Assembly: GCA_039714175.1 (NCBI GenBank)
Contig: JBDLJV010000003.1
Location: 1-34,466, forward strand
Length of the DNA: 34,466 bases
Source of the DNA: Actinomycetota bacterium
Lineage (GTDB): Bacteria > Actinomycetota > Acidimicrobiia > Spongiisociales > UBA5794
Direction of reading: 5' to 3'
Below the pieces are notes generated by a model that saw nothing but the letters and a program-made list of their open reading frames with translations, made no database searches and was not told the DNA's origin. A program made the translations under genes and the position numbers. Below, piece by piece: positions 1,163-31,346 of this stretch; the stretch's first letter is position 1; each line of letters opens with the position of its first letter.

Positions 1163-1386
1163 TACGAGGTTTCTCGCGTTCTCCCGTCATGGCGTTGTCG
1201 TGAGACGTCGACGCGCGGTCACGGGCCCCTGCAGCTGTTGCGATCGAGAATCGACTCAGTGACGCGACCGATGTCCGAGGCATCTCGTACCTGCGTTGCT
1301 CATCAACGCGGGCATGCGGTGACATCACGCTCCATTCGGTGTAACAAACACTGACCACAGCAATGGAACCACGAAATGAATGCCCC

Positions 1387-1414
1387 TTGACGGTTGTCGA
1401 GTCGCGTGTAGCGT
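1387..1414 (+). promoter_or_regulatory. putative housekeeping-sigma promoter
   Basis: TTGACG-N16-TAGCGT about 60 bp upstream of ATG 1474. Confidence 0.35.
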
Positions 1415-1473
1415 TGGTTTTGGCTTGGACCAGGACACGGTGGGCACCCACTCACAAGAGAAGGGACCCAACA

Positions 1474-3326: not shown

Positions 3327-4580
3327 TCAGGACTCGGTGGTTTCGGTCTCGACGCGAGAGCGACGTCGAAGCGACCGAAAACCAGCAGCGATCAACGTGA
3401 TCGAGACAGCGAGGACTCCCATGATGAAGGCGGGGCCGCGCCAATCCGCTGCCGACCCCTCCGACGTCAACAGAGTCTCATTCGTTCGCGCCCACGGTGG
3501 ACCTCCCCGTCCCGACGGAGGCGAGGGCGTGGCAACAGCTGGTGCCGTGTCCTCCCATGAACGGATGAACCCGACGACCGATTGAATCTCGGCTTCCGTC
3601 ATGCGATCACCCCACGCTGGCATGGGTGTGCCGGGTACTCCAAGCGTCACAATCTGTTCGATCGCAGCATCAGATGCTTCTCCGAGGAAGCCTTCGACAT
3701 TGAGCGCTGGGATACGCATGGTGCCCTGCCCTTCGACACCGTGGCACGTCGAACAGTTGTCGGCGTACAGGGTTTCTCCAAGGGCAAGTGACTCCTCGGT
3801 CGTGGCGATCGGAACGTCAGGTGCAGGGACGGCACCGGAAGGAACCTCCTCCCAGCGAGCGATGAGTTGTGCGAGATCGTCGATCGTCTCGTCGTCGAGG
3901 CGTCCACCCCACGGAGCCATCAACGTGCCGGGTATCCCCAGTTCGATCGTGCGTGTTATCTCATCCGGTGTCTGCTCTCGTACATCCGGATCGTTCAGCG
4001 CTGGTGCAAGCCCCGTTCCGAGTCCATCCGCACCGTGACACGCCACGCATTCCGCGGCGTAGATGTCGACAGCGTGTTGGAGCGATGCGCCGCCGTCAAG
4101 CTCGCCCATCGACTCGTAGATGGCGGCGTCCGGCTCGGCGGAGAACGGGACAAGTGGGGCAAGACCAAGGTTCACAACCCGATCACCGACCTCATCCCAG
4201 TTCCCGTAGTTGATGAGTGAGACAAGCTCCGACACCTGGTAGTCGCTGAACGGCCCGCCATCGTCAATCGACCAAGCCGGCATCGCCGTACCAGGCTGTC
4301 CCCGAGCGATGATCTTGCTCAGCATGTCCTCGTCGGCAGCGCGGAGTGCTTCGTCGTTGAGCGGCGGATTCGATCCGATGCCTTCACCACTGAGGCCGTG
4401 GCAAACCGAGCACTGTTGTGCGTACAAGTTCATGGCGTCGTCGATCTGCTCATCGAGGATCTGGTCGGCGGCGGTAACGACCCGGTCCGGTTCGTCCACA
4501 ATCGCGATGCCGAGGGCGATGGTGAGGGCGACTCCTGCGACCAACCCGACGCCTATCTCGATGCTCCTTGTTCTGGTCAT
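3327..4580 (-). CDS. membrane-anchored triheme c-type cytochrome (three class I domains)
   Basis: CSVCH, CVACH and CSTCH, each followed by a PGTxM Met-ligand motif; hydrophobic helices at both termini. Confidence 0.93.
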   Translation of the reverse strand: MTRTRSIEIGVGLVAGVALTIALGIAIVDEPDRVVTAADQILDEQIDDAMNLYAQQCSVCHGLSGEGIGSNPPLNDEALRAADEDMLSKIIARGQPGTAMPAWSIDDGGPFSDYQVSELVSLINYGNWDEVGDRVVNLGLAPLVPFSAEPDAAIYESMGELDGGASLQHAVDIYAAECVACHGADGLGTGLAPALNDPDVREQTPDEITRTIELGIPGTLMAPWGGRLDDETIDDLAQLIARWEEVPSGAVPAPDVPIATTEESLALGETLYADNCSTCHGVEGQGTMRIPALNVEGFLGEASDAAIEQIVTLGVPGTPMPAWGDRMTEAEIQSVVGFIRSWEDTAPAVATPSPPSGRGGPPWARTNETLLTSEGSAADWRGPAFIMGVLAVSITLIAAGFRSLRRRSRVETETTES

Positions 4581-5086
4581 GCGTACACCGCCTGAGACGG
4601 ATCGAAGTCATCCCGCGAGATCGTGGTTCCGGTGTCCACGGACACGATGTCGCCCTCGATCGAGACGGAGAACAGGTCGAGCGGTCGGGGGGCGGGCGGG
4701 TTCAAGACGTCACCGGTGTCGTCGAATTGGGAGTTGTGGCAGGGACAGATGAACTGCCCGGCCGCCTGATCCCACGGCACGGTGCATCCAAGGTGCGTGC
4801 ACCGCTGGTGCAGAGCCAGGAACCCACCGTCGTCAAGACGAGCGATGTAGAAGCGACCGTTCGGAATGTGCGTGATCGATCCCGTCGGGAAGTCGTCGAC
4901 GGCACCCACAGCGATGACGCCCCCGAAATCCCCTTCGGCGACTCTCGGTTGCGCGTAGCGGAAGCCGATCGTGCCGATCTCCGCAACGGCGAGCGCCCCA
5001 ACGGCGATGCCGCTGTACTTGAGGAATGACCGGCGGTCGATCCTGCGGGCACCTTCTCGTTCGATCTCGATTTGTTGTTCGTTCAT
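4577..5086 (-). CDS. Rieske [2Fe-2S] subunit of a Rieske/cytochrome b complex
   Basis: Start at MNEQQ (ATG 5086); Tat motif DRRSFLK plus TM helix; boxes CTHLGC and CPCHNS; PPAPRPL motif; ATGA overlap with the cyt c gene. Confidence 0.93.
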   Translation of the reverse strand: MNEQQIEIEREGARRIDRRSFLKYSGIAVGALAVAEIGTIGFRYAQPRVAEGDFGGVIAVGAVDDFPTGSITHIPNGRFYIARLDDGGFLALHQRCTHLGCTVPWDQAAGQFICPCHNSQFDDTGDVLNPPAPRPLDLFSVSIEGDIVSVDTGTTISRDDFDPSQAVYA

Positions 5087-5093
5087 GTAGTTC

Positions 5094-6491
5094 TCAGTGT
5101 GGAGAGGGCATCGACCAGGGCCAGAACAGTTCCATGCCGGGACCTCGGAAGAAGACGCCGACCACGGTGAGGACGACGAGGGAGACGGCAAGGAAGGTGA
5201 AGAGGAACAGCACCCGCTCCTCGAGGGTGCCACCGAGCCCTTTCTCGATCCAGAGGTCGAGGAGCGCCAGAACCACGACAACGGTGGCGAGCGGGAGGAA
5301 TCCGTTGGACAGCACGGTCGGCCACGTGTCGAGCCACACCGACCAGTCGAGGTACCGATCGTCGATAACGATCCAGGCGGAGGTGAGGACGAGGGACAGT
5401 CCGGCTGCGATCGCCCCAAGAGACCGCCCCCGCCGTGATCGGAACCAGATTCCTTCGTGTAGCGCGTCGTGGTCGAGGAACGGCAGCGAGAAGAACCCGG
5501 CAAGGGCGAGGCCCGGGATGACGATCGCTGCCACGAACGGATGGAAATGGACGAGCAGCTCCTGGATGCCCATGAAGTACCACGGTGCCTTCGCCGGATT
5601 CGGGCTCACCGCAGGGTCAGCAATGCCTTCGAGTGGTGCTGGGACAAATACCGAGAAGGTGACGACGATGGCGATCCATGCGAGTGCCCACACAGTCTCA
5701 CGCCGGACAAGGTGAGGAATCGTGGTGACGCGTGTTGGCCGTTCGTCCATCTCCTCATCGACTGCGCGAGGGATCGTCAAGCCTCCGTCCTTGCGGACCC
5801 GCCAGAAGTGCAGTGCCATCAGCAGGAAGATGGACAGCGGGATGAACGAGATATGCAGCGCGTAGAAATGGAGGAGTGTCGTGCCCGATACCTCCGGGCC
5901 GCCGAGAAGAAGCGACTCGATACTCCCGCCCACAAGCGGTATGTATGTGATGAGGCTTGTTCCGACCGTGATCGCCCAATAGGCAAGTTGGTCCCACGGC
6001 AACAGGTAACCGGTGAAGTTGGCGCCGAGGATGAGCAGGAGCATCACAACGCCGAAGATCCAGTTGACCTCCCGCGGAGGCCGGTAGGCACCGGTGAAGA
6101 AGACCCGCAGCAGATGGAGGACGGCAACAACGATGAGCAGATTCGCGGACCAGTGGTGGATGTTGCGCAGCAGTTCACCGAACCAGATGTTCGAACGAAG
6201 GTTCAGGATGGACAGATAGGCATCGGGGGCCGTCGGCGTGTAGTTCACGAGGAGGAGCACACCTGTAGCCACGAGCAGGGTGACAAGGAGCGCAGCCAGA
6301 CCGCCGAGACCCCACGTGTACGTCCATTTCAGCGTCCTTTTGGGAATCCTCGCCGGATGGAGATGGAGAACAAGCGTGTCAAGCACAAGCCTGGACCGTG
6401 CGCGATCGTTGCTCGGGACACCGGGAGGTGCCAGACGCTTGCGCGCCCGATCGAATCCCGACTGCTCATCGTCGAGGACGCTGTTGCTCAT
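5094..6491 (-). CDS. cytochrome b (b6-like N-domain fused to subunit IV-like domain)
   Basis: Four heme His (RNIHHWSAN...LHLLRVF and FYALH...LHFWR); TGYLLPWDQLAYWA; NPAKAPWYF in place of PEWY. Start uncertain (6491-6551). Confidence 0.93.
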   Translation of the reverse strand: MSNSVLDDEQSGFDRARKRLAPPGVPSNDRARSRLVLDTLVLHLHPARIPKRTLKWTYTWGLGGLAALLVTLLVATGVLLLVNYTPTAPDAYLSILNLRSNIWFGELLRNIHHWSANLLIVVAVLHLLRVFFTGAYRPPREVNWIFGVVMLLLILGANFTGYLLPWDQLAYWAITVGTSLITYIPLVGGSIESLLLGGPEVSGTTLLHFYALHISFIPLSIFLLMALHFWRVRKDGGLTIPRAVDEEMDERPTRVTTIPHLVRRETVWALAWIAIVVTFSVFVPAPLEGIADPAVSPNPAKAPWYFMGIQELLVHFHPFVAAIVIPGLALAGFFSLPFLDHDALHEGIWFRSRRGRSLGAIAAGLSLVLTSAWIVIDDRYLDWSVWLDTWPTVLSNGFLPLATVVVVLALLDLWIEKGLGGTLEERVLFLFTFLAVSLVVLTVVGVFFRGPGMELFWPWSMPSPH

Positions 6492-6621
6492 CTCGTTGTT
6501 CCATTGCCGATCATGACGGCCCTCAGGCAAGCGCGACAGCATGGAGTCCACGCGTCGTTCACATGTTGATTCTGTGAAGCTTGATTCGGCTGATCTTCGC
6601 CTCCCTCAGCCGAGAGCCCGG

Positions 6622-9703: not shown

Positions 9704-9833
9704 CGCCGCCTGCCTCACGATCGTTCGGCCCAGAGCCCGCATGAAAGCGAGCCTTGTAGTACGATATCTTTGTCGTGATAATACTATCCGGAATTAGAAC
9801 TCGTCAATCAGATTTCGTCTTTGGGTGCGAACA

Positions 9834-12032
9834 ATGATGACATCCGAGATCCTGCTCTCAACGTCGGCAACCGCTGCTCCCCTGAGCGAGCACCAGGTTC
9901 TTGTCCTGCTCGTCCAGCTGCTCATACTCGTGGGGTTCGCCAGAATCCTCGGCGGGCTGATGAAGCGTGCCGGTCAGCCCCCTGTCGTCGGTGAGCTCCT
10001 CGCAGGGGTAATCCTCGGCCAGACCATCTTCGGACGTCTCGCACCGGGCGCTTTCGAATGGGTCTTCGGAGATGACCTCGTACGGTCGGTTGTGTTCGCC
10101 CTTGCATGGATCGGCGTGATCCTCCTTCTCGTGGTGATCGGTTACGAAACCGATCTGGGAATCATCATGCGATTCCGCAAGGCCGCGGGATGGGTGTCGG
10201 CGGGCGGATTCCTCGTACCGCTCCTGATCATGGGCTCGGCCGCGTGGCTGGTCCCGGACGACTTCGTGGGCGAAGGAATCGACCGGGCAGTCTTCGCCGG
10301 GTTCTTCGCCCTCGCTCTGTCGGTATCGGCACTTCCTGTGGTCGCCAAGATCCTTCAGGATCTCGGAATGATGCGACGCAACTTCGCTCAGATCACGCTC
10401 GCTGCAGGGATGACGATGGATGCCGTTGGGTGGCTGCTCCTTGCTGCACTGACGGGGATCGCCCTCGATGGATTCAGGCCTGAACTGCTGGCGCGGTCCT
10501 TCGGAGGGCTGGTGGTTTTCATGGCTGTGCTGATCACCCTTGGACGCTGGTTCCTCGACCGAGTGATGCTCCATATCCTCGACCGTGGGTCGAGCGTCAC
10601 CGCGGCCCTGACGGTGGCCATCCTCGCAGCCTTCGCCGGGGGTGTCGTGACCCAGGCGCTACAGCTCGAAGCCATCCTCGGAGCGTTCATCGTCGGCATC
10701 CTGCTTGCCACGACACGACACCAACTCCCCGAGGTTCGCCGCACGCTCGAAACCATTACAGCAGCCATCTTTGCTCCGATCTTCTTCGCCTTCAGCGGTT
10801 TGCAGGTCGACATCGGGTTGCTCAGGTCGGGATCCGCAATCGCATGGGCGATCGGACTCGTCGTACTCGCCATGCTTGCAAAGATGATCGGTACGCTCCT
10901 CGGGGCGCGACGGGCATCAATCGTGGGACGCGAAGCACTCGCACTGGGTGCCGGGCTCACAGCGCTTGGCGCAATGGGCATCGTGGTCGCCATCGTTGCC
11001 CTCAATCTCGGCGTCGTCAGCACCACCGGCTACACGGTGCTCGTTGTCGCCGCAATCGCCACATCGCTCAGTGCGCCCCAACTACTCCGATCGATCGTAC
11101 GCGGCTGGAAGATCCCCGAAGAAGAAGCGCATCGTCTCGAGCGCGAGGCCATACAGGCAAGCTCCGAGATCCTTGGTAGCCGACGCATCCTGCTCCCCAC
11201 CCGCGGTGGAGCGAACAGTGCCTACGCGGCACGCCTTGCTGCGCGCATCTTCGATGGAGCGGAGATCACCGTGCTCGCCGTTGATGTTCCGACCCGACGT
11301 TCACTCTTCCGCCGGCGCCGCGTCGGCTCATCGACACACGCAAGCGACGTGTTGGCCGAGCTCAACGGCACGCGCCACCACACCGTCCGGGTCCAAGCGC
11401 AGGATCCGGCCACTGCGATCGCCCGCGAGGCACGGCTGGGATACGACCTCATGTTGATCGGAGCATCCGGCAGCGGCGAGGACAGGTCCGGGATGCACTC
11501 CACAATGGTCGACCGGGTTCTTGCCCTGGTCGACGTTCCGACAGTGGTTGTGCATCTCCCCGAGGATGCGTCGCGTGACATGCTTACTCCGACCCGAATA
11601 CTCGTTCCGGTGGTCGCCAGCCGATCGTCCAGAGCAGCTGAGGAATTCGCGTACTCGATCGCTCGCAGCGTCGACGGCGAGGCTGCAGCTCTCCATGTTG
11701 TGAACCGCCCGCAGGGACAGGGAATGATGTTCAGCTCGACCACAGAAAAGGAGGCGATCCGTTCGGGCAAGGAGATCGTCGCCGGAGCCGCTGCGTTCGG
11801 GGAACGGCTTGGCGTTGCTGTCGGAGTCCACGTGCGGACGGCCACGAATGCCGAGGAAGTGATCGTCGACTTCGTCGACGAAGGCGGCTTCGATCTCCTG
11901 GTGATCGGCGCCTCAAGCCGACCGCTCACGGATCGCCCATTCTTCGGCCACCGGGTCAACCACATCCTCGACCACGCGCAGGTACCCGTAGCGGTTATCG
12001 CTCTGCGCTCTCATGCCAATGATGGAAGGTGA
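9834..12032 (+). CDS. cation:proton antiporter (CPA2) with two C-terminal universal-stress-protein domains
   Basis: GQPPVVGELLAGVILG, SVSALPVVAKIL, many TM segments, then RILLPT...YDLMLIG and RILVPV...FDLLVIG USP folds. Start could be GTG 9825. Confidence 0.92.
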   Translation: MMTSEILLSTSATAAPLSEHQVLVLLVQLLILVGFARILGGLMKRAGQPPVVGELLAGVILGQTIFGRLAPGAFEWVFGDDLVRSVVFALAWIGVILLLVVIGYETDLGIIMRFRKAAGWVSAGGFLVPLLIMGSAAWLVPDDFVGEGIDRAVFAGFFALALSVSALPVVAKILQDLGMMRRNFAQITLAAGMTMDAVGWLLLAALTGIALDGFRPELLARSFGGLVVFMAVLITLGRWFLDRVMLHILDRGSSVTAALTVAILAAFAGGVVTQALQLEAILGAFIVGILLATTRHQLPEVRRTLETITAAIFAPIFFAFSGLQVDIGLLRSGSAIAWAIGLVVLAMLAKMIGTLLGARRASIVGREALALGAGLTALGAMGIVVAIVALNLGVVSTTGYTVLVVAAIATSLSAPQLLRSIVRGWKIPEEEAHRLEREAIQASSEILGSRRILLPTRGGANSAYAARLAARIFDGAEITVLAVDVPTRRSLFRRRRVGSSTHASDVLAELNGTRHHTVRVQAQDPATAIAREARLGYDLMLIGASGSGEDRSGMHSTMVDRVLALVDVPTVVVHLPEDASRDMLTPTRILVPVVASRSSRAAEEFAYSIARSVDGEAAALHVVNRPQGQGMMFSSTTEKEAIRSGKEIVAGAAAFGERLGVAVGVHVRTATNAEEVIVDFVDEGGFDLLVIGASSRPLTDRPFFGHRVNHILDHAQVPVAVIALRSHANDGR

Positions 12033-12753: not shown

Positions 12754-14553
12754 CTACTTCGGCAGCGGTGGAACCAGGCAGACCAGCGGACTCGAGGAGT
12801 TCCCTGAAGCGTCCGTCGCGTAGACGAGCATGTCCCCTTGGCCGGTCAGGTGCCAGGCAACAGCATCAGCCTCGCCCCGCACACTCCCGATCGGCCGCTC
12901 GGTCGGCTCAGCTCCCGGCGCTTGGGTCCACTTGATCTTCGTACCCGCGGCATACGGGCCGAAGACATAGCCCGTGCCCTCGTCGACAACGAACACATCG
13001 GGATTCGGATCGACAGCATCAGAGGCAGCCAGGTCATAGAAACCGTCCTCGTTCTGACCACCATTCGGTCCGGGGAGGCTGCTTGAGCCTGCGGGCGGGA
13101 TCTTGTCTCCGTGCGGGTTCGGTCCCGGCATGCAGGCCGCCAGTGGTGGGGTCGTGTCGGCCCACCTGACAGTCGCTGTTGCACAACCGGTCTGTCCGCT
13201 GGGTTCTTCGACGGTGAAGCACGCCTCGATCGTATCGGTGCCTCCCGCGCCGGTGTTCGTGTACGTCCATGGAACACCGCCGAGGACCCCTGTGGTTCCT
13301 GAGCCGGTGGCGCCGTGATTCGGTCCGTCGATGACGGTGAACGTCACGTCACGTCCGCCGACCGTTCCAGCCAGGCCTTCGATGGTTGCCGTGACCGTGT
13401 GCGTGGTGTCAGTGCCAAGTTCCTTGGTCGCGGTCTCAGGTGTGAGATCGATTCCGTACACGAACACCGTGGTGCACGCCTCGCCGGAGTCACCACCTCC
13501 GCCGGCATCACTACCTACGGCGGTGACGCACATCGTGTGCTCACCGACACCGAGGCCGGTGACAGGTGTCGAGTAGGTCACAGCCAGCGGTCCCGCGTGC
13601 GGCAACGGTGTCGAGATGTCGGAATTCGGGATGACGGTCGGGGAACCACCATCGACGGTGAGTTCCAGATGATGAAGCTCAGAAGTGAGCAACCCGGAGA
13701 CGAGCCCGGCGAGATCTGCCGGATTCTGGACTTCGGTGCATGTGCCATTGGTGGCGTTGGCGATCTCCTGCAGCGTGCCATCGGAACCGACGCTGCACGA
13801 TGATCCCTGTCCAACTGCAAACGTGTGAACGACCGCGCCGGTCGCGGCGAGCTCACCAAGATTCGCCCCGAAGTAGCCAGCCCCATCGTTGCTGCGCCCG
13901 TCGGAGAGGAAGACGACGAGGTTCGAAGCGCTTGTGGATGCCCCCACGATCGTTCCGGCTGCACCAAGCCCTTCGGCGAAATTGGTATTGGCACGGTTGA
14001 CATGTTTGGCGGTGAAGTCCGTCGGACCTGCATGGGTCGGCGAAGCAACGACGGAAGTGGCGACCGTGTACACATGGGCCGGTCCGGCGCTCGGAGAGGT
14101 GGTCGGATCAATGCCGACGATCGGCGACATATCTGCAGCGGCACCGTACCTCCCGTATACGGCAAGGCCGACCTCATCGACCCATCCGGAAGAAGCGGCC
14201 GCGGCATTGAGGGCAAGCACCGCTGCGATCTCACAATCCAGGATCGTGTCCGAGAGACCGTCGTCGTTGACATCGCCACCACAGTTTCCGTTGGCAGAGT
14301 CGTTAACGCTGCCTGAGACGTCAACGACATACGTGATCGTCAAGTCGGCGGTTCCGTATCCAATCGACGCCGTCCCCTCGACGCTCACATCAACCCCGCC
14401 CGGTGGCAGCACGTACTCGGTGCCGTCAATAGGCGCATCCACCGTGACCTTGATCGGCGTGCCGCCCGGCAGAGACGATTCTGATTCCGAGGCAAGCGCG
14501 GGCAGTGCCGTAACCACGAGAAGTAAGGCGATTGAGATGGCAAGGCGCCGCAT
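12754..14553 (-). CDS. secreted VWA-domain protein with Ig-like domains
   Basis: Signal peptide; RBS AGGAGG; MIDAS residues DVSGS, TNF, FLSDG; beta-rich C-terminal half. Confidence 0.88.
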   Translation of the reverse strand: MRRLAISIALLLVVTALPALASESESSLPGGTPIKVTVDAPIDGTEYVLPPGGVDVSVEGTASIGYGTADLTITYVVDVSGSVNDSANGNCGGDVNDDGLSDTILDCEIAAVLALNAAAASSGWVDEVGLAVYGRYGAAADMSPIVGIDPTTSPSAGPAHVYTVATSVVASPTHAGPTDFTAKHVNRANTNFAEGLGAAGTIVGASTSASNLVVFLSDGRSNDGAGYFGANLGELAATGAVVHTFAVGQGSSCSVGSDGTLQEIANATNGTCTEVQNPADLAGLVSGLLTSELHHLELTVDGGSPTVIPNSDISTPLPHAGPLAVTYSTPVTGLGVGEHTMCVTAVGSDAGGGGDSGEACTTVFVYGIDLTPETATKELGTDTTHTVTATIEGLAGTVGGRDVTFTVIDGPNHGATGSGTTGVLGGVPWTYTNTGAGGTDTIEACFTVEEPSGQTGCATATVRWADTTPPLAACMPGPNPHGDKIPPAGSSSLPGPNGGQNEDGFYDLAASDAVDPNPDVFVVDEGTGYVFGPYAAGTKIKWTQAPGAEPTERPIGSVRGEADAVAWHLTGQGDMLVYATDASGNSSSPLVCLVPPLPK

Positions 14554-14693
14554 GCTGGCCCTCCTATTGAGGCTCTGATGCCACCTATCCCCCCACTGCC
14601 CGTAGTCAAGTTAACACATAGGGTGGTTATTCGTCAACCGAGCGACACCCGACCTCCCCGTGTCACCCACCCGGCCCGAGCCATATCGTCGGA

Positions 14694-15152
14694 TCACTCC
14701 TCCGCCGGTGGACCGGGCCGGATCATCCATTGCGTGCTGTCAGCGAGCGGCACGAATCCGAATTCCCCGTACACGCCATGGGCATCGTCCGTGGCGAGCA
14801 GTTGCCACTTGAGTCCCTTCAGCTCGGGGTGCTCAACGATCGCTTGAACGATTGCCGTGCCAAGACCGGTGCCCCGGTGGCCGGGCAGCACGAAGACGTC
14901 AGCCAGATAGCCGAATGCGACGAGGTCGGTCACCATGCGAGCGAACCCGACCTGCTGGCCGTCGAGATAGGCACCGACCACGAGAGGACTCAAGTCGTTG
15001 GCCAGGCGTTGGGCATCTCTCGATCGGCCCCTCGCCCAGTAGGACTCCTCACTCAGGAATCGGTGCACAACATCAAGATCAACGCGATCGGGGTCCGTGC
15101 TGATGATGTACCGACCGTGCGTTTCTTCGATCGATCCTCCGAAAGCGCTCAT
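14694..15152 (-). CDS. GNAT family N-acetyltransferase
   Basis: QVGFARMVTD, YLADVFVLPGHRGTGLG, DAHGVYGEFGF. Confidence 0.92.
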   Translation of the reverse strand: MSAFGGSIEETHGRYIISTDPDRVDLDVVHRFLSEESYWARGRSRDAQRLANDLSPLVVGAYLDGQQVGFARMVTDLVAFGYLADVFVLPGHRGTGLGTAIVQAIVEHPELKGLKWQLLATDDAHGVYGEFGFVPLADSTQWMIRPGPPAEE

Positions 15153-15460
15153 TTTCCAATGTCCTCGTTCCACAAGTCCGGATTGCCCTTGATGAATCTA
15201 TCCATCTCGTCAACGCACTCAGCGTTGTCGGCGATCACGACCTCGACGCCGTGACTGGCCAAGAGAGACTCAGTTCTCCCCCACAACGACACGCTGTATC
15301 CCGTACAACACGATGGCGCCGCTGCGCATGTCGCACAGCGACAGCGTGGTGTACATCGTGGAGCGCTTGTAGACCTGCGCCGGTTGGCGTCCGGCCGCTT
15401 CGAGCGCGTCCACCTCGCCGTGCCGAATGGGAGATCCTACCGGCACGGCAGAGATGGGGG
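15149..15460 (-). pseudogene. decayed cytosine/nucleoside deaminase (yeast FCY1-like)
   Basis: Manual translation: GSPIRHGEVDALEAAGRQPAQVYKRSTMYTTLSLCDMRSGAIVLYGIQRVVVGEN*, then frameshifted ESLLASHGVEVVIADNAECVDEMDRFIKGNPDLWNEDIGK*. PCxxC is mutated and the N-terminus is missing. Confidence 0.88.
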
Positions 15461-15465
15461 GAAGA

Positions 15466-16098
15466 TCAAGTGCTCTCCGGATGGTTCAGATCGATCGCGA
15501 CGGTGCGAAGCGCGGAATACATCGCAGACGTGGCGAGCGCTTGGGTTGGCACCGGCAGCTCCAGTCTGACTGCACCGTCTTCTGCGTGGGATCTCGTTGC
15601 TCCTATCGCCTGGAGAGCCTCGAGGACCTGTCGGTTTGACAGCGAAACGTACGCTCGGAAGCGTTCGATTCCGTTCTCGTGCGCGGCGTTCGACAACGCC
15701 TGAAGCAGGATGCGTCCCAATCCTTTTCGCTGACAACCGTCGACAACGGCGAGCGCAGCTTCTGCGACTGTTGGGTCATCGTCGGTGCGGATGTACCGGG
15801 CGATGCCGACGCCGGGCGGGTCAGCAACATCGAGGGTTTCGGCTGCCCACGCGAAGTGATTGGCGTAGTCAATCTCGGTCAGATAAGTCAGATCAGCTTC
15901 GGTGAGCGTGGCCTTTGACCACATGAAACGGAGGTAGCGTGAACGAGCTGAGAGGTTCTCCCAACCTTCGGCAAGGCGAGCTCTGTCCTTCGGTGCAATG
16001 GGCCTAACGCGCACAGGCGTGCCGTCGTTGAGCTGCGCCGTGAACGCCAGATGCTCAACAAATTCGTTGACATCTTCGGGATTTCTGCTCGCTTCCAT
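15466..16098 (-). CDS. GNAT family N-acetyltransferase (type resembling the GNAT domain of protein lysine acetyltransferases)
   Basis: LNDGTPVRVRPI, LSARSRYLRF, EIDYANHFA, VGIARY, AEAALAVVDGCQRKGLG. Confidence 0.9.
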   Translation of the reverse strand: MEASRNPEDVNEFVEHLAFTAQLNDGTPVRVRPIAPKDRARLAEGWENLSARSRYLRFMWSKATLTEADLTYLTEIDYANHFAWAAETLDVADPPGVGIARYIRTDDDPTVAEAALAVVDGCQRKGLGRILLQALSNAAHENGIERFRAYVSLSNRQVLEALQAIGATRSHAEDGAVRLELPVPTQALATSAMYSALRTVAIDLNHPEST

Positions 16099-24322: not shown

Positions 24323-25522
24323 CTACGTGAGGACAGCTTCGATCTGCTCGAGTGCCCAGTTCACTTGGTCCTTGGTGATCACGAGCGGCGGAGCAATACG
24401 GATCGTCGAGCCGTGGGTGTCCTTGACGAGAACGCCGCGATCCTTGAGCGCGTTCACAACCGGTTTGGCGCCGCCAGCGTCCTGCTTCAACTCGATCGCG
24501 AGCATGAGACCGCGGCCGCGAACCTCCTTGACCCGATCCGATCGGATGGAGCGAAGCTGCTGCAGGAAGTACTCACCCAAGCGTTCCGAGTTCTCAATCA
24601 TTCCCTCCTCCACGAGAACGCGAAGGGCCATCCGTGCAGTTGCGGCTGCAAGTGGATTACCGCCGAACGTACTTCCGTGCTCCCCCGGCTTGAGGACACC
24701 GAGGACCGCTTCGTTCGACAGGACGGCCGAGACCGGATAGAACCCTCCGGCCAGGGCTTTACCAATGAGAGTGACGTCAGCCTCGATGCCTTCGTGCTCT
24801 TCGGCGAGGAGGCGTCCGGTACGACCGAGACCGGTCTGGATCTCGTCGAGGATGAGTGTGATGTCGTGCTCGGTACACAGCTCGCGCACTCGCGGGAAGT
24901 ACCCGGGCGGCGGGATCTTCACCCCGGCTTCACCCTGGATAGGTTCAACGAGGAAGGCGACGGTGCGGGGCGTGATCGCAGCCTCAAAGGCCTCAGCGTC
25001 ACCGAATGGGACGACCTTGAAGCCGGGTGTGAACGGCCCGAACCCCTGACGGGCCATCGGATCTGTGCTGAAGCTGACAATCGAGATTGTTCGGCCGTGG
25101 AAGTTGTCGGCGCACACGATGATCTCGGCCTCGTCCTCCGGTATGCCCCGCTCCTCGTATCCCCATTTCCTCACGGCCTTGATCGCCGATTCGACGGCCT
25201 CGGCGCCACTGTTCATGGGGAGGATCCGGTGCGAACCGGTGAGTGCAGCCAACTCCTCATACAAGAGAGCGAGCTGATCGTTCCGAAATGCCCTAGAGGT
25301 CAGGGTGAGGCGACTTGCTTGCTCGGTCATCGTCTCCAGAATCCGGGGATGGCAGTGGCCTTGATTGACCGCCGAGTATGCGGAGAGGCAATCGAGATAC
25401 CGGGTGTCGTCGACATCCCAAACCCACACCCCCTCGCCACGCGTGAGCACCACGTCGAGCGGTTCGTAGTTGTGGGCCCCGAGGAGCCGTTCGCTGGCGA
25501 TGAGGTCCGAGGCAGTAACCAT
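24323..25522 (-). CDS. rocD: ornithine--oxo-acid aminotransferase
   Basis: [57 protein letters not shown]. Confidence 0.93.
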
Positions 25523-25526
25523 ATTC

Positions 25527-26306
25527 CTAGAGCACCTTCGACACGAAGGCCTTGGTCCGTTCATGCTGCGGGTTCGAGAGAACTTCCTTGGGAGGCCCGG
25601 ACTCGATGATGACGCCTTCGTCCATGAGATACAGGGAGTCGGCAGCTTCTCGAGCGAAGCCCACTTCATGCGTCACGACGATCATCGTCATCCCATCGGC
25701 GGCGAGCTGTCTCATGACTTCGAGTACCTCCCCAACGAGTTCAGCGTCCAGTGCCGAAGTGGGTTCGTCGAAGAGCATCAGCTTCGGCTCCATCGCTAGC
25801 GCGCGAGCGATGGCAACCCTCTGCTGCTCGCCGCCGGACAGCTGCGCCGGGTAGGCACGGAGCTTGTCGCTGAGGCCGACGCGGGCCAGGAGCTCCTCAC
25901 CCTTCGCGCGGGCATCCGAGCTCTTGAGCTTCTTCACCTTGATCGGGGCGACCGTGACATTCTCCAGAGCGGTCCGATGGGGGAAGAGGTTGAACCGCTG
26001 AAAGACCATGCCGATATCGCGGCGCTGGCGGGAGGCATCTCGTGCGTGCATCTCGTGCAGCCGGCCGCCTCGTTCCTGATAGCCCACGAGTTCGCCATCG
26101 ACATAGAGACGACCCGCGTTGACCTGCTCAAGATGGTTGATGCACCGGAGGAACGTGGACTTGCCCGACCCGGAGGGTCCGATGATGCAGGCAACCTCCC
26201 CCGGCTCAACGGTCATGTTGATGCCTCGCAGGACTTCCAGCGCTCCGAACCGCTTCCAAACATCCTCAGCCTGTACGACCGGGGTTTGGTTTGGTAGATC
26301 GTTCAT
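25527..26306 (-). CDS. polar amino acid ABC transporter ATP-binding protein
   Basis: [44 protein letters not shown]. Confidence 0.95.
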
Positions 26307-27262
26307 CAGCGATCCCCTTTCACCATCGTGGATGCTTCTGCGAGTGCCTCGAGTTGCCGCTCGGTCATGACACGGCTGGCACCCTTTGCGAAATACCGCT
26401 CCAGGTGCATCTGGCCGACCATGAGAATCGAGGTGAAGGCCAGGTACCACGTTGAAGCGATCATGAGCATCGGAATTGGGTTGAACGTCTCGATTGACAG
26501 GTCACGGGCTCTGGCGTACAGATCGAGCGTATAGGGCACAGCGATGACCAGGGAGGTTGTCTTGAGCATCGAAATGAGTTCGTTGCCCGCCGGAGGAATG
26601 ATGACACGCATGGCTTGGGGCATGACGATCTGAGCCATTGTCTGCGTCCACGACATGCCCAGTGCGGTCGCTGCCTCGGTCTGACCCTCATCGACGCTTG
26701 TGATGCCTGCACGGACAATCTCCGCCATATAGGCAGCTTCATTGAGCGCAAGCCCGATGACAGCGATCCAGAACGTGTGGTCGAGGAACGCCCTCATATC
26801 GAAGGTGGCGAACGTCGGACCAAACGGGATGCCAATGTCGATCTGGTGGTAGATGGTGGCGATGAGCCCCCAGAAGACGAGCTGCACATAGACGGGTGTT
26901 CCCCGGAAGAACCACAGCACACCCCAACTGACCGACCGCAGAACCGGGTTCGGGGACAAGCGCATCGCTGCAAGCATCACGCCAAGGACCAATCCCAAGG
27001 CCATCGCAAGAACCGTCAGCATGATCGTGATACCGGCCGCATTGATGATCCGGCTGTCGAATAGGTACTCGGCGTAGGTCGGCCACTCATAGGCGGGATT
27101 GGTCGCTGCTCCGTAGAGGAACAGTCCAAGGAAGAGCAGCACTGCGGCGGCCGAGAACGTACGTCCCGGCCGCCGGAGTGGCACTGCTTTGATTGGCTCC
27201 GGCCCGGCGGGCTCGGAGTCAGCTTCTTGGCTACTCGTGCTTCGCTGGTTGGAGCCGGACAT
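26306..27262 (-). CDS. polar amino acid ABC transporter permease
   Basis: FRGTPVYVQL, NEAAYMAEIVRAG, GQTEAATALG, MLKTTSL. Confidence 0.95.
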   Translation of the reverse strand: MSGSNQRSTSSQEADSEPAGPEPIKAVPLRRPGRTFSAAAVLLFLGLFLYGAATNPAYEWPTYAEYLFDSRIINAAGITIMLTVLAMALGLVLGVMLAAMRLSPNPVLRSVSWGVLWFFRGTPVYVQLVFWGLIATIYHQIDIGIPFGPTFATFDMRAFLDHTFWIAVIGLALNEAAYMAEIVRAGITSVDEGQTEAATALGMSWTQTMAQIVMPQAMRVIIPPAGNELISMLKTTSLVIAVPYTLDLYARARDLSIETFNPIPMLMIASTWYLAFTSILMVGQMHLERYFAKGASRVMTERQLEALAEASTMVKGDR

Positions 27263-28153
27263 TTAGTACACCGCGCCGTTGATCGTGACCTCTTCGATGG
27301 CTCCCTCTTCGACTCCCCACTTCGTGAGAATCTCAAGGTATGTGCCATCATCGATCAAGGACTGCATCGCTGTTGCCAACGCATCCTTCAACGTCCCGGC
27401 GTCCTTGCCGACAGCGATACCGAACGGGGCCGAATCGACGATGTCGCCAGCCAGTTCGAGCTTGCCTTCGGTCAGTGACACCGCGTACTGGGTGACGGGA
27501 GAGTCTGCCACAAAGGCATCCGCTCGCCCGAGGACAACGGCGTTGGTGACGACCTCGTGGCCGTCGAGCTTCAGTATGTTGATCGGCTCTTTGCCGTCGG
27601 CAACACACGCATCGCTTATCGCCGGGACCTCGTCTGTCTCCTGCCATGTTCCCGTACCGACCGCGACGATCAGGCCGCACGCGTTGGCGGGATCGACATT
27701 GGAGCCGGCCTGAGCCGCCCACTGGCTGCCGGCCTCGAAGTAGTCCACGAAGTCAACCGACTCTTGTCGCGAGAATGTGTCGGTGAACGACGCCCATCCG
27801 ATGTCGAAGGTGCCACCCTTGACGCTCGGGATGATGTTGTCGAATTGCGACTCGCGGAATTTCGGCTCAAGCCCAAGCCTGTGGCTGAGCGCCGTGACCA
27901 ACTCGATTCCCCAACCGGTGGGGTTGCCGTCCGGATCCTTGAATTCATCCGGGGAGTATGAGAGCTCGGTGCCGATCACGAGCTCGCCTGAGGACTTGAT
28001 GTCGTCAGGCAGAAGCGCAACGGCAGCCTCATCCACCACTCCCGAACCCGCGGTAGTGGTGATGTCACTCGAATCGTCGCTCGAGCAACCCGTAAGGGCG
28101 GTCATCACCATGACGACGCTGATTGCAATCGTGATTAGGCGATATCTGGACAT
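27263..28153 (-). CDS. amino acid ABC transporter substrate-binding lipoprotein (family 3)
   Basis: Lipobox LTGC; FDNIIP, VDFVDYF, DGTYLEILTKWG; RBS AGGAGG. Confidence 0.93.
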   Translation of the reverse strand: MSRYRLITIAISVVMVMTALTGCSSDDSSDITTTAGSGVVDEAAVALLPDDIKSSGELVIGTELSYSPDEFKDPDGNPTGWGIELVTALSHRLGLEPKFRESQFDNIIPSVKGGTFDIGWASFTDTFSRQESVDFVDYFEAGSQWAAQAGSNVDPANACGLIVAVGTGTWQETDEVPAISDACVADGKEPINILKLDGHEVVTNAVVLGRADAFVADSPVTQYAVSLTEGKLELAGDIVDSAPFGIAVGKDAGTLKDALATAMQSLIDDGTYLEILTKWGVEEGAIEEVTINGAVY

Positions 28154-28164
28154 GTGCGGACCTC

Positions 28165-29157
28165 CTATGGTGCCGACTGGTTGTGTGTGGATAAGGCAGA
28201 ATCAAGAACGGTATGCCTGTCATCTGCGAACTGTCTGTGGTCGTGAATGAAGTCCATGACGGTTGCGCTGGTCGTAGCCCCTGCGCGAGCTCCTGCGACG
28301 GTCACGGCTCTCGCGGAAGCAGCAGTGGCGAAGATCGCGGCGAGCTCTGCGTCCCCGGTGCGATTGAGGGCGTACAGGAACGCTGCGCCGAAGGTGTCAC
28401 CGGCTCCGGTGACATCAACAACGTCGACTTGGATACCTGGAATCTCGCGGACGACGTCGGCGTCGTAGAGCCGGCATCCATCCTCGGCGAGAGTTACGAC
28501 AAGCGTTTGCAGCCGCCCGGATAGCAGCTCGGCCACCGCCTGGGCTTCACTGCCGCCGTGAGCGAGATGTTGCATGCCGACGCGATTGACGAAGAGGATG
28601 TCCGCAAGACCGAGGAGTGCATCGTCTCCGACCCGGAGGTCTCCCACATCGAGGTCAAGAACGAGTTTTGCCCCAGCGGCGTGAACCTCGCCGATGATCT
28701 CACCCGGGAGCCTGTCTCGGTGGCGGAGCATCCGCAGGTCACCAATAGCCGTGTAGATGTAGCTTGCTTCGGTGATCGTGGCGAGCGCTTCGTCACTCAA
28801 TTCGATGCGTTCCAGCCCAGTCCTGGGAGTCAGGACAGTGTGCTCATCCCCTGCAGAGACGATGATGCAGCGGGAATCGGCCAACGCCTCGTCGCGGCTG
28901 ACCAGTTGGGTGTCCACGCCGCTCTCGGACAAACCGGCAAGCAGGGAATCCGTGGTGGGACTGTCGTTCATGACCCAGCAGAACCGAGCCTGCTCGCCGT
29001 ACCCGGCGTACACAACAGCAGCGTTGGCGATCATGCCTCCCGGGAACGCGCCCACCGCTTCGACTTCGATCTTCGTGCCGTGTTGCGGCCATTCATCGGC
29101 GCGGTAGTGCTCGTCGAGAGCAGCATCGCCGATGAAGACGCAGTAGTCGCTCGTCAT
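28165..29157 (-). CDS. PfkB/ribokinase family carbohydrate kinase
   Basis: GGMIANAA and DVTGAGDTF signature; ATGA overlap with the upstream gene. Confidence 0.92.
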   Translation of the reverse strand: MTSDYCVFIGDAALDEHYRADEWPQHGTKIEVEAVGAFPGGMIANAAVVYAGYGEQARFCWVMNDSPTTDSLLAGLSESGVDTQLVSRDEALADSRCIIVSAGDEHTVLTPRTGLERIELSDEALATITEASYIYTAIGDLRMLRHRDRLPGEIIGEVHAAGAKLVLDLDVGDLRVGDDALLGLADILFVNRVGMQHLAHGGSEAQAVAELLSGRLQTLVVTLAEDGCRLYDADVVREIPGIQVDVVDVTGAGDTFGAAFLYALNRTGDAELAAIFATAASARAVTVAGARAGATTSATVMDFIHDHRQFADDRHTVLDSALSTHNQSAP

Positions 29158-29660
29158 ACCAAGCTCTCTTCGGCGAGCTCGATGGCGACCGGCCCGTTGT
29201 CGAGTTCGATCCAATCGTCCTGCAGTGCCTCGTCGACGGCTGCAAACCAGTAGTAGACCGCCGGTCCGTCCACGCCGACGCACGGGGCGTGCCACACGCC
29301 GGGATCCAGGATCACGCATTCACCCCGAGAGATCAACAGCGCTTCCACGTCCACCGTCCGAGGCCGAGCTTCGGTCGGTGCGGCGACCGGCAGAATGACG
29401 GGATCCCCTGAGCAGAACACCGCTTCCGAGGTGTGCAGGTGTCGCTCCATCTGGTGGACACTCGAAGGGAGTTCGGGACCGGCGGTCAACCCCAGATGTC
29501 CACCAGACCCGATCAACGCATCACTGGTGTACCGATCGCTGAATCCAGGCCCTGCCGTATCAACGACACCCGGCCCGCCAGTCGCAAGGTTCACGTACCG
29601 CCCGTACGGAGACACGTCTGCCTCGCTGCACGGAACGGCTGTGGCATGCGCTCGGGTCAC
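29154..29660 (-). CDS. ureidoglycolate lyase (AllA)-like cupin
   Basis: SPYG, MERHLHTSE, LPVA, PGVWHAP. Confidence 0.75.
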   Translation of the reverse strand: MTRAHATAVPCSEADVSPYGRYVNLATGGPGVVDTAGPGFSDRYTSDALIGSGGHLGLTAGPELPSSVHQMERHLHTSEAVFCSGDPVILPVAAPTEARPRTVDVEALLISRGECVILDPGVWHAPCVGVDGPAVYYWFAAVDEALQDDWIELDNGPVAIELAEESLV

Positions 29661-29661
29661 G

Positions 29662-30441
29662 TCACACTCCCCTCACGGTGTCGATGGGAGCAGCACCACG
29701 GATTCTGCGCACAGCTTCCACGAGGCTCTCGGCGTGCTCGGCGCTGACATCGCCGTTGTCGGTAAACGTGTCCTTCAGATAGCTCCCGACGATCGCACCA
29801 TCAGCGACAGAGAGTTGGTTTTCGGCGTTGCGGATCGTGACACCTGCGCCGGTGATCAGCGGGAAGGATTGTCCAACGACGTCCCGGAAATCGACGATCT
29901 TGCTCAGATCGGTCTCAATGCCGGTTCCCACGCCTGTTACGACGACCGCGTCGCATCGCTCAATGGCCAGACGCAGATCGGTCTCCACAGAGTTGCCTGA
30001 GAGAACCGGCTGGTACTTGAAGCGAACGCCGCCGAAGACCAACGCTGAGGACTGTTCACGCTGCTCGGCCAGCCACTCGGCGAATGCCGCGTCGTCATCG
30101 GGAGCGAGATGGCCGGCGACCGAGTCCAATTGGATGAAGGCGGCCCCGTAACTTCGCGCAAGTTCGAACGCGCGCACATCGTCGTCGAGCACGTTCACGC
30201 CGTAGGTGCACTCCGAACGATGGGTTGCGAGATACTCGAGAACGCTCTCGACGTCATCCGCGCTGCCGAAGTAATTCTCGACGATGACACCGTCGACTCC
30301 TGCTTCGGTGAGGATGTCGATTTCTCGAAGTGTTCGCCGCAGACGATCGTGCTCTGTATCGCCCTTGAGATGCAGCATCGCAAAGACGGGCTTGTTCCCG
30401 AATGTGCTGTTGAACCGTTCCATGGGACTCATGTCGGTCAC
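29662..30441 (-). CDS. BtpA/SgcQ family TIM-barrel protein
   Basis: KPVFAMLHL, GVDGVIVENY, GVNVL, DAVVVTG..TG, GAGVT..N, ADGAIVGSYLK. Confidence 0.88.
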   Translation of the reverse strand: MTDMSPMERFNSTFGNKPVFAMLHLKGDTEHDRLRRTLREIDILTEAGVDGVIVENYFGSADDVESVLEYLATHRSECTYGVNVLDDDVRAFELARSYGAAFIQLDSVAGHLAPDDDAAFAEWLAEQREQSSALVFGGVRFKYQPVLSGNSVETDLRLAIERCDAVVVTGVGTGIETDLSKIVDFRDVVGQSFPLITGAGVTIRNAENQLSVADGAIVGSYLKDTFTDNGDVSAEHAESLVEAVRRIRGAAPIDTVRGV

Positions 30442-31163
30442 AGTTCTCCCCCGGGGAACTCGGCGATGGCGGTGGTCAGGTTGAACTCCACGCGCGATGC
30501 GTAGAGAACCTTTATCTGTTCGATCTCGACATCGTTCTGATCAAAGGCACTTCCCTCGGTCTTGATCAGCGCAGGACCATCGGAAGGTTCTCCAAGAAGT
30601 TCAGCCACGTCAGGAGAAGGGATCTCGGTCGAAAGCGTGATCTGCGTGCGCCGCGGATGTGTTTTGTACTGCTCACGGAGTATTTGGTAGAGGGATCGAT
30701 CCTCGAAGTCGATGTCCTCGATCCCGGGGAATCGGCTGGCGTCCATCACGGAAGTGTCCAACGAGAGGTAGGTCGTCCGCTCAGGCGTCCTGGTTCCGCG
30801 AAGGCGGACCATCCGGAAGTACTGGTGACCATCGATCTCGGTCAATCCCGCCTCTATGACATGCGCCACAGGGGATTCGGCGCGCCCTCTCAGGCTGTCC
30901 GTGAAACCGCCCATGTTCAGAATGCTGTGACGAATGGGCTGCAACTGGACGAAGGTGCCCTTGCCGTGTTGCCGGCGCACCAGGCCTTCGCTCACGAGAA
31001 CATCAACCGCCTGACGAGCGGTCCCACGCGCGGTGCCGAACATCGACATCAGCTCGGCTTCCGAGGGAATTGCATCGCCGGGCTTGTACGTCCCCTCCAA
31101 GATCAACCCTCGAAGCTGCTGGCTCATGTGAACGTATCGCGGTGTGAAGCTGGACTTGACCAC
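30438..31163 (-). CDS. GntR family regulator (HutC/UTRA subfamily)
   Basis: IPSEAEL...TARQAVDVLVSEGLV.R.HGKGTFV plus UTRA-type SLYQILRE; RBS GGAGG. Confidence 0.93.
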   Translation of the reverse strand: MVKSSFTPRYVHMSQQLRGLILEGTYKPGDAIPSEAELMSMFGTARGTARQAVDVLVSEGLVRRQHGKGTFVQLQPIRHSILNMGGFTDSLRGRAESPVAHVIEAGLTEIDGHQYFRMVRLRGTRTPERTTYLSLDTSVMDASRFPGIEDIDFEDRSLYQILREQYKTHPRRTQITLSTEIPSPDVAELLGEPSDGPALIKTEGSAFDQNDVEIEQIKVLYASRVEFNLTTAIAEFPGGEL

Positions 31164-31187
31164 CTGTGTCGTTCCTCCGTTGAGGTC

Positions 31188-31211
31188 ACTTGTCTAGACG
31201 TCTATACGAGT
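31188..31211. promoter_or_regulatory. palindromic GntR/HutC-type operator
   Basis: ACTTGTCTAGAC|GTCTATACGAGT, arms match at 10/12, about 25 bp upstream of the GntR start. Confidence 0.75.
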
Positions 31212-31346
31212 AGAGTAACACGCAACATCTGATTCTGTCAATCAAGCCGCTGCCGTCCGAGAGCATCTCAATAGTCTCCTGTCAAGATTCTCCACAGAGT
31301 GCTCGATGTCGATTGGCACAGACCAATCACCCTGGCCCAGACGCGA

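Follow-up and report, generated by a model that had tools for sequence, protein, structure and literature searches.

The stretch of DNA analysed here (the window, 34,466 nucleotides (nt) in length: contig JBDLJV010000003.1 of assembly GCA_039714175.1, from a bacterium of the Actinomycetota) carries on its minus strand, at 24323-31163, an operon of eight co-directional genes. These encode a GntR-type repressor, a BtpA-family barrel, an AllA-like cupin, a PfkB-family kinase, the binding protein, permease and ATPase of an ATP-binding cassette (ABC) importer and, last, the ornithine aminotransferase RocD. Judging by their distribution, the first seven of these genes are a conserved, horizontally shared cassette and rocD, on the same comparison of gene orders, is a lineage-specific 3' addition that lies outside the conserved cassette and is seen only here. 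We give an even chance to the view that the cassette is a fructosamine-like utilisation system, that is, one for a sugar-amino acid conjugate, in which BtpA with the cupin would replace the SIS-domain deglycase.

Gene order and gene families can be read directly from the DNA (Table 1). An earlier note on this stretch had named the eight families and had described co-directional genes with overlaps or gaps of 11 bp or less, and this holds: the junctions, 5' to 3', measure -4, +1, -4, +11, 0, -1 and +4 nt, and all eight proteins exceed the Pfam gathering scores. The starts given for PfkB, the ATPase and RocD are homology-supported internal ATGs of longer open reading frames (ORFs). Beyond rocD there is a gap of 328 nt and then a DASS transporter gene with its own ribosome-binding site; the spacer folds no better than shuffled sequence (z 0.57), and an Rfam scan of the window gave no match. 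As the note had supposed, no characterised pathway with this combination of genes was found in the literature.

Table 1 Features of the eight-gene operon and of the region upstream of it
Feature	Position	Strand	Support
-35-like hexamer TTGACA, inferred operon promoter	31236..31241	-	read from sequence
Operator-like palindrome ACTCGTATAGACGTCTAGACAAGT, HutC/GntR GT..AC type	31188..31211	.	24 nt, imperfect
GntR/HutC-type repressor with UTRA effector domain, FrlR-like	30438..31163	-	PF00392 67 bits, PF07702 50 bits
BtpA-family phosphate-binding TIM barrel	29662..30441	-	PF03437 92 bits
AllA-like cupin	29154..29660	-	PF04115 35.5 bits
PfkB-family sugar kinase	28165..29157	-	PF00294 119 bits
Family-3 solute-binding lipoprotein	27263..28153	-	PF00497 96 bits; lipobox LTGC
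ABC permease (His/Glu/Gln/Arg/opine family)	26306..27262	-	PF00528 67 bits
ABC ATPase	25527..26306	-	PF00005 120 bits
Ornithine-oxo-acid aminotransferase (RocD), last gene	24323..25522	-	TIGR01885 526 bits

Related loci came from a pattern scan of one genome per species, which returned 508 BtpA relatives of which 80 were kept, and from a metagenome scan that added 80 loci; their gene content was established by tblastn with the window's nine proteins. The order GntR-BtpA-cupin-PfkB-binding protein-permease-ATPase is found colinear in seven other loci, in Microbacterium (L003), in Ca. Phosphoribacter (L004) and in L030, L039, L040, L041 and L054, whilst in L001 and L002 the cupin is missing from this order and three Leifsonia loci (L044, L052, L063) keep the order in part. 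The ABC proteins of the colinear loci are 56-82% identical to those of the window, the ATPases 70-82%. A permuted order, permease-ATPase-binding protein-GntR-BtpA-cupin-PfkB, is seen in Arthrobacter, Paeniglutamicibacter, Mesorhizobium loti and several metagenome contigs. BtpA is also present in 15 plasmid-collection records. Two of these were opened, one from Ensifer, the other from Antarctobacter heliothermus, which is diatom-associated; both hold exactly the seven cassette genes, with an IS6 transposase adjoining the cassette in one of them. Colinear or permuted, the cassette thus recurs in Actinomycetota, Rhizobiales, Rhodobacterales and Bacillaceae. Among 40 relatives of the window's genome, by contrast, only BtpA-like matches of 28-34% identity were found, none of them orthologue-like (this tally and the 172-locus count given below include the unpublished genomes G027 and G038, with loci L091 and L092, which added negative counts only). 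It is this patchy distribution of the seven genes in distant taxa, with none in the relatives, that points to a mobile cassette, and the arrangement of the genes is far from chance. The BtpA-like gene of 28-34% identity is carried by 31 of the 40 relatives (G001-G040); a PF03437 search of the window's own genome (89% complete) found no such gene.

The position of rocD is quite different. RocD itself is an equivalog-level assignment (526 bits on TIGR01885 against a cut-off of 378; on PRK04073 it scores 531 bits, below 656), and its gene follows that of the ATPase by 4 nt. Neither rocD nor any other class-III aminotransferase gene was found in the 172 related loci, a set that is without the closest BtpA relatives (71-74% identity, P0002-P0007) and includes nine colinear loci with at least 5 kb of sequence past the ATPase gene, or in the two opened plasmid-collection replicon regions (H1, H2). 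The earlier note had expected BtpA and cupin homologues to recur beside PfkB, an amino acid ABC transporter and rocD as members of one pathway; the first two companions do recur, but rocD as a conserved member has to be given up. With a count of 0/172, the importer genes and rocD are not one module: the importer goes with the enzymes, and rocD is on its own. Searched for at E<=1e-60, rocD was absent from all ten same-genus genomes; the cassette is absent from them too (0/10 for each), and the two are equally foreign to the genus. In G010 no rocD stands ahead of the DASS gene, and the neighbours of the DASS and SfLAP genes in G005, G007 and G010 have no further counterpart in the window. The window's genome, which is 89% complete, did not yield an arginase. 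A functional tie, with RocD taking the released amino acid if that is ornithine, might exist here, at clearly less than an even chance.

Further clues come from the control region. A weak -10 element (TACTCT) lies 18 nt downstream of the TTGACA hexamer, and the palindrome is found just beyond it, before the GntR start. Because a consensus scan gave no sigma-70 promoter at its threshold, the placement of the promoter is read from the sequence, and TTGAC(A/T) occurs at the equivalent position in L001, L002, L004, L030, L039, L040 and L054. The arms of the palindrome are 13 nt long and 85% complementary, and the site is unique in the 34-kb window (0.16 sites expected by chance). The orthologous GntR gene is preceded by the same palindrome, in the equivalent position, in 11 loci (L001, L002, L004, L030, L039, L040, L041, L044, L052, L054 and L063), and a variant, AACTTGTACACAyrAGTG, takes that place in L003 and in seven loci from Bacillales (Bacillota). 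The note's description of a UTRA-type GntR that heads the operon with its own palindromic operator is therefore borne out, by a single site that is conserved in related loci. Consensus and palindrome scans revealed neither an internal terminator nor a second operator on the coding strand of the operon; together with the single operator, this speaks for one transcript that would span all eight genes, rocD included.

The regulator combines an N-terminal GntR winged helix (PF00392) with a C-terminal UTRA domain (PF07702), which places it in the HutC subfamily. Of the NCBIfam models NF008491 fits it best, with 100 bits where 269 are required; this is the model of FrlR, since Escherichia coli FrlR scores 490 bits on it, and the two proteins are 32% identical (E 6e-28). 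According to a preprint, FrlR is a roadblock repressor whose GT..AC operator lies just past the start site and which is released by fructoselysine-6-phosphate (bioRxiv 10.1101/2020.01.13.904318).

To look beyond the cassette, we took 101 loci that are 5 kb or longer and whose BtpA has an identity of 45% or more, clustered the ORFs of all six frames and counted features within 7 kb of BtpA. PfkB is found there in 75 of the 101 loci, the cupin in 44 and a short M24 hydrolase in 23, and the cupin and the M24 hydrolase are never found together (0/101). In all 44 cupin-bearing loci the cupin has the kinase, BtpA and a transporter as neighbours. The transporter itself varies: an energy-coupling factor (ECF) transporter stands beside BtpA in 36 loci, and in one more that also has a LIV system; a family-3 ABC system in 24; a mannose-family phosphotransferase system (PTS) with a LevR-type activator in nine; a LIV-type ABC system in five and an APC permease in five; in the other 21 no transporter was seen. 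Where a family-3 binding protein is present (24 loci), PfkB is found in 23 cases, the cupin in 22 and GntR in 19. In the nine PTS loci neither PfkB nor the cupin is found (0/9 for each), as would be expected if BtpA uses a phosphorylated substrate. In a quick tree the BtpA of the window groups with those of L001 and L002 (SH-aLRT, the Shimodaira-Hasegawa-like likelihood-ratio test, 85) among actinobacterial ABC-type loci, and the type of transporter has switched often, with 20 changes against a possible minimum of five; ECF-type and binding-protein-type BtpAs from Bacillaceae are close together.

Gene fusions, which are observed directly, link the same proteins. The cupin forms one protein with BtpA in P0020 and P0173 and with PfkB in P0211. 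In 14 clusters, whose proteins are 640-647 amino acids long, BtpA is joined to a domain of about 390 residues; in the two examined, this domain is either 58% identical to a stand-alone protein of L016 (P0131) or matches, weakly, a xylose-isomerase-like barrel (P0127, E 1e-5).

A number of sister systems depart from the layout of the window. The nine PTS loci, from Firmicutes (L046, L048, L062, L064, L067, L070, L071, L079 and L111), have the order LevR-type sigma-54 activator-IIA-BtpA-IIB-IIC-IID, with BtpA as the only enzyme gene that gene-family labels pick out; in L064 a split transketolase and a transaldolase-like gene come after the operon. A second arrangement, LacI-PfkB-ECF(S,T,A,A')-BtpA followed by the short M24 hydrolase, is found in L005, L013, L018, L019, L022, L024, L026, L027, L029, L031, L042, L043, L053, L059, L060, L074 and L093-L095, often with a GATase1-like protein, a HAD phosphatase and an inosine-uridine-type nucleoside hydrolase. 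In L032, L033, L058, L068 and L075, BtpA-PfkB(-cupin) lies beside DDAH/arginine-deiminase-like, creatinase-like M24 and LIV-type ABC genes, a layout that is possibly a variant for guanidino compounds.

The link to fructosamines rests on the neighbours of BtpA in other bacteria. Seven BtpA loci have an APC permease that aligns along its full length with E. coli FrlA, which transports fructoselysine and psicoselysine, at 52-56% identity; it scores 564 bits on the FrlA model, the next family reaching 200. In Mediterraneibacter massiliensis (L066) the whole operon consists of GntR-GntR-FrlA-like permease-BtpA::barrel fusion-kinase, flanked by unrelated housekeeping genes. In a Clostridium contig (L061), BtpA adjoins true frlB (54% identity) and frlC (51%). 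A tblastn search with E. coli FrlB found FrlB-like SIS proteins in only three of 176 sequences, two of them weak and none in the window. The SIS proteins of the window's genome lie on other contigs; on contig C10 of this genome (G000), two double-SIS-domain proteins (open frames of 334-371 amino acids, at 772-1626 and 13814-14928) could be FrlB/AgaS-type enzymes.

The importer of the window, in which a family-3 binding protein, a His/Glu/Gln/Arg/opine (HEQRo)-type permease and an ATPase are encoded together, is of the polar amino acid transport (PAAT) type, the permease scoring 60 bits on TIGR01726, above the cut-off of 42. The binding protein keeps an Arg aligned with R75 of E. coli GlnH, conserved in 14 of 14 sequences, and an Asp aligned with GlnH D157; these residues, from the GlnBP literature, we take to hold the carboxylate and the amino group of the ligand. 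If this clamp is valid, the ligand of the window would have a free alpha-amino-acid head, with the sugar on the side chain. At the D157 position, Asp is found in the window and in the actinobacterial colinear cassettes and Gly in the permuted ones (Arthrobacter, Mesorhizobium, Antarctobacter and relatives, the Alphaproteobacteria/Micrococcaceae type); on the same premise, binding proteins of the Gly type may take alpha-substituted ligands. An ectoine system was considered for these genes and rejected, with 313 bits for EhuA, where 345 are required, and no more than 31 for EhuB.

What, then, of the two proteins that would stand in for a deglycase? BtpA passes its family model (PF03437, 92 bits against a cut-off of 30) and scores 86.9 bits on TIGR00259, below the subfamily cut-off of 153.4. 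The window's clade is marked by a GGVRFKYQP motif and by mutual identities of at least 45-50%. PF03437 occurs from E. coli to cyanobacteria and archaea in control genomes, and both E. coli SgcQ and cyanobacterial BtpA belong to it. The sgcQ gene, too, lies within a PTS operon, but the window's BtpA is only 28% identical to SgcQ, which was rejected as an orthologue for this reason. No enzymatic reaction is described for BtpA or SgcQ in the full-text literature searched, and none of the solved structures could be assigned to the family by sequence. The predicted model (mean predicted local distance difference test (pLDDT) score 93.6) is a standard phosphate-binding (beta/alpha)8 barrel, and its list of solved folds is flat, with dozens of unrelated barrels at Z 16-20, among them hexulose-phosphate synthase, TrpA, TrpF and HisA/HisF. 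Alignment and model together place an invariant lysine, K139, after strand 5 and no lysine on strand 6, where KDPG-type (2-keto-3-deoxy-6-phosphogluconate) aldolases carry one.

The cupin passes Pfam PF04115 (35.5 bits, cut-off 23) but none of the equivalogs for AllA (ureidoglycolate lyase), on which it scores at most 26 bits against cut-offs of 160-282; the best is NF002952, with 26.4 bits against 260. Its predicted model (pLDDT 96.1) is nearest to AllA structures, with template-modelling (TM) scores of about 0.7 and 16-17% identity, and next to sugar isomerases, epimerases and DUF4867. A profile of the cupin subfamily matches AllA at E 3e-11, and fold as well as the ERH and WH motifs are common to both, but the motif that reads ERHPLGTQ in AllA is ERHxHTxE in the subfamily. 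AllA works in the context of the allantoin pathway, whereas Pfam scans of the loci revealed no allantoin genes, and in some organisms the cupin is fused to BtpA or PfkB. The subfamily is small, with 44 representative clusters at E<=1e-30 among 1.84 billion proteins, as found by exhaustive profile search (a word-indexed search gave only six proteins). The earlier note's proposal that the cupin removes a ureido or amidino group finds no support in so distant a relative of AllA (16-17% identity, 26 bits against 260). A structure prediction for a complex of BtpA with the cupin scored 0.02 (mark 0.32), which counts neither way.

From this we infer the substrate class, the order of the steps and the parts played by BtpA and the cupin. 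The lipoprotein-anchored ABC importer would take up a small molecule in which a free alpha-amino-acid head is joined to a sugar, most likely a fructosamine of the Amadori type or a closely similar sugar-amino acid conjugate, and PfkB would phosphorylate the sugar part. As a mechanistic guess, BtpA might isomerise the ketosamine phosphate to the aldosylamine phosphate, and the cupin might split the hemiaminal C-N bond, the type of bond that AllA splits in ureidoglycolate, to give a sugar phosphate and the free amino acid. The amine released would be ornithine if rocD is functionally tied. The FrlR-like repressor would sit on the palindrome downstream of the promoter until the phosphorylated intermediate sets it free. 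The general idea of import, phosphorylation and processing put forward in the earlier note gains from the FrlA-like permeases, the exchange of PfkB for a PTS, the FrlR-like regulator and the fusions; its urea-releasing route from an arginine or citrulline compound to RocD does not. With urea release unsupported and no arginase found, an arginine-, citrulline- or ornithine-type substrate stays a guess, for which rocD here and the DDAH-like and creatinase-like genes in a few sister loci are indirect hints.

In the known route, fructoselysine is phosphorylated while it is taken up or once it is inside, whereupon FrlB releases lysine and glucose-6-phosphate (PMC10285752). The logic proposed for the window is that of E. 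coli frlABCDR: uptake by a transporter of the amino-acid type, phosphorylation of the sugar by a kinase of the PfkB family, release of the amino acid by a further enzyme, and control by a GntR/UTRA protein that represses at a GT..AC operator past the promoter. The E. coli system differs in that it has FrlB, an SIS deglycase, and FrlC where the window has the BtpA barrel and the AllA-like cupin, and in that its transporter is FrlA where the window has an ABC system and, appended, an ornithine aminotransferase gene. No SIS-domain fructosamine-6-phosphate deglycase (FrlB, FraB, GfrE/F) is encoded in the window and its PfkB is not a fructoselysine 6-kinase of the FrlD type (46.8 against 247 bits), so that the system would work like frl without being a member of it. 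In the systems of Bacillus subtilis (frlBONMD-frlP) and Salmonella (fra/gfr), too, Amadori or Heyns compounds are taken up by an ABC importer or a mannose-family PTS, and the phosphorylated form is then cleaved. The gfr layout is mirrored by the LevR-IIA-BtpA-IIB-IIC-IID loci, but these systems use SIS-domain deglycases, and the importer of B. subtilis is a sugar-type (CUT1) ABC system rather than one of the polar amino acid type. In the soc system of Agrobacterium, an Amadori compound (deoxyfructosyl-glutamine) is imported by SocA, a family-3 binding protein as in the window, although SocA is not the best match of the window's protein; soc then uses oxidative amadoriases and not a kinase route. 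Among the matches listed in a literature search on fructoselysine, deglycases and Amadori compounds, no TIM barrel was mentioned.

Several points weigh against a fructosamine system. None of the cassette enzymes is orthologous to a characterised fructosamine enzyme; PfkB, for one, is 26% identical to FrlD and reaches 46.8 of the 247 bits that the FrlD model NF007321 requires. The transporter of the window is not FrlA-like, and among structures in the Protein Data Bank (PDB) its binding protein matches SocA (E 1e-14) less well than it does Gln/Arg binders (9e-26). The top fold matches of BtpA, at Z 19-20, are not isomerases but KDPG and KDPGal (2-keto-3-deoxy-6-phosphogalactonate) aldolases. 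Since BtpA coexists with FrlB in L061, it need not be a replacement for it. Sister loci with nucleoside hydrolases (nine), M24 hydrolases (23) and ECF transporters (37) could mean ribosides or other substrates. As to the counts themselves, the labels of the ORF clusters from the 101 loci rest on Pfam and NCBIfam scans of one or two representatives each, and the kin loci are not independent, with near-duplicates among them (L005 is the L093 contig; L108/L109; L120-L127 with L145).

Of the other explanations, one starts from these aldolase folds. The substrate might be a charged or amino-acid-like sugar, for example an amino-sugar acid of the glucosaminate type, which the cupin would isomerise or deaminate, PfkB would phosphorylate and BtpA, as an aldolase, would split to triose phosphate, much as in the Embden-Meyerhof-Parnas pathway. 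KDPGal aldolase is indeed the best solved fold for BtpA (Z 20.4, 200 residues aligned, root-mean-square deviation 2.4), followed by KDPG aldolase; the best solved relative of PfkB, for which no NCBIfam equivalog was passed, is sulfofructose kinase (E 2.6e-15), and the cupin model resembles sugar isomerases and epimerases once AllA is set aside. LevR with a mannose-family PTS is, moreover, the architecture of the Salmonella glucosaminate system too. Yet the list of folds is flat and the strand-6 lysine that KDPG-type aldolases carry is missing from BtpA, where K139 follows strand 5; the FrlA-like permeases and the true frlB and frlC neighbours point to fructosamines, and the PTS loci, by their gene-family labels, need BtpA alone. 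We regard this route as unlikely. The same PTS loci, which have BtpA without the cupin, tell against the specific route of the earlier note. There, a compound of arginine, citrulline or ornithine, glycated or ribosylated, would be imported and its sugar phosphorylated, BtpA would cleave or isomerise it, the cupin would release urea or an amidino group, and ornithine would pass to RocD. What speaks for this route is that rocD is last in the operon, close behind the ATPase gene with no operator or terminator between, and as foreign to the genus as the cassette, the DASS gene of G010 being without it; that the cupin has the fold and the ERH and WH motifs of AllA; and that the LIV-type sister loci have DDAH/arginine-deiminase-like (five loci) and creatinase-like genes (four loci). 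The absence of rocD from the 172 loci and from H1 and H2, the failure of the cupin on every AllA equivalog at 16-17% identity and the failure to find an arginase in the 89%-complete genome make it rather improbable.

A salvage route for a riboside or nucleoside-like molecule, in which an N-ribosyl compound taken up at low concentration would be 5'-phosphorylated by a ribokinase-like PfkB and then processed by BtpA, draws on the 37 of 101 loci that use an ECF transporter (its S component matches the CD3073 family with 100 bits, where 180 are required), on the nine loci with an inosine-uridine-type nucleoside hydrolase, on ribokinase being the best NCBIfam model for PfkB (90 bits, cut-off 300) and on the closeness of ECF-type and binding-protein-type BtpAs in Bacillaceae. 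The nucleoside hydrolases, however, are found almost only in the LacI/M24 branch and not in the GntR/cupin branch of the window, whose binding protein keeps the residues of the amino-acid clamp; nor are mannose-family PTS or FrlA-like permeases known to carry pentosides. We hold this route to be distinctly improbable. It could also be that two unrelated modules are adjacent by chance, a GntR-BtpA-cupin-PfkB sugar module and one for the uptake of arginine or ornithine with RocD, the ABC proteins looking by family like ordinary polar-amino-acid importers and RocD being a bona fide ornithine aminotransferase. For the ABC genes this is refuted, as they travel with the enzymes: PfkB is present in 23/24 and the cupin in 22/24 of the family-3 loci, in two gene orders and at least three phyla (Actinomycetota, Pseudomonadota, Bacillota), with ABC proteins up to 82% identical to those of the window, and there is one operator and no internal terminator. 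As an explanation of the whole operon, chance adjacency is very improbable indeed.

Elsewhere in the window, the genes for cytochrome c, the Rieske protein and cytochrome b lie in a row at 3327-6551 (-) and encode the bc1-type complex usual in Actinomycetota, a Na+/H+ exchanger is fused to two universal-stress-protein domains (9825-12032, +), and a protein of 623 amino acids has four bacterial TSP3 repeats (1363-3234, +). ORFs of 599, 174, 150 and 366 amino acids have no Pfam match at E<=0.001 (12754-14553 (-), 14730-15703 and 5469-6569); the DNA of the window is 61% GC, and some of these long frames may be shadow frames. A search of sequencing runs matched two marine-metagenome DNA runs of one study and no RNA run.

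Taken further, the fructosamine reading leads to a bolder and more tentative one, that the window's BtpA clade might make up a novel class of fructosamine-phosphate deglycase, not related to those of the SIS type, and the cupin a general hemiaminal C-N lyase that releases the amino acid, the seven genes then being a mobile module for marine, soil and gut bacteria that here would pass delta-glycated ornithine to RocD. TrpF and HisA run the Amadori rearrangement forwards; a deglycase BtpA would run it backwards. If true, this would be the first enzymatic function for the widespread PF03437 family, and the patterns of neighbourhood, fusion and PTS-for-kinase exchange make that function a concrete and cheap biochemical test. 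The presence of the cassette on large plasmid-collection replicons would show a complete nutrient-use trait moving between phyla. Processed food, decaying biomass and the gut are rich in Amadori compounds, which shape microbiomes (PMC10285752). A second, non-homologous route for their use would change the counts of fructosamine degraders in metagenomes.

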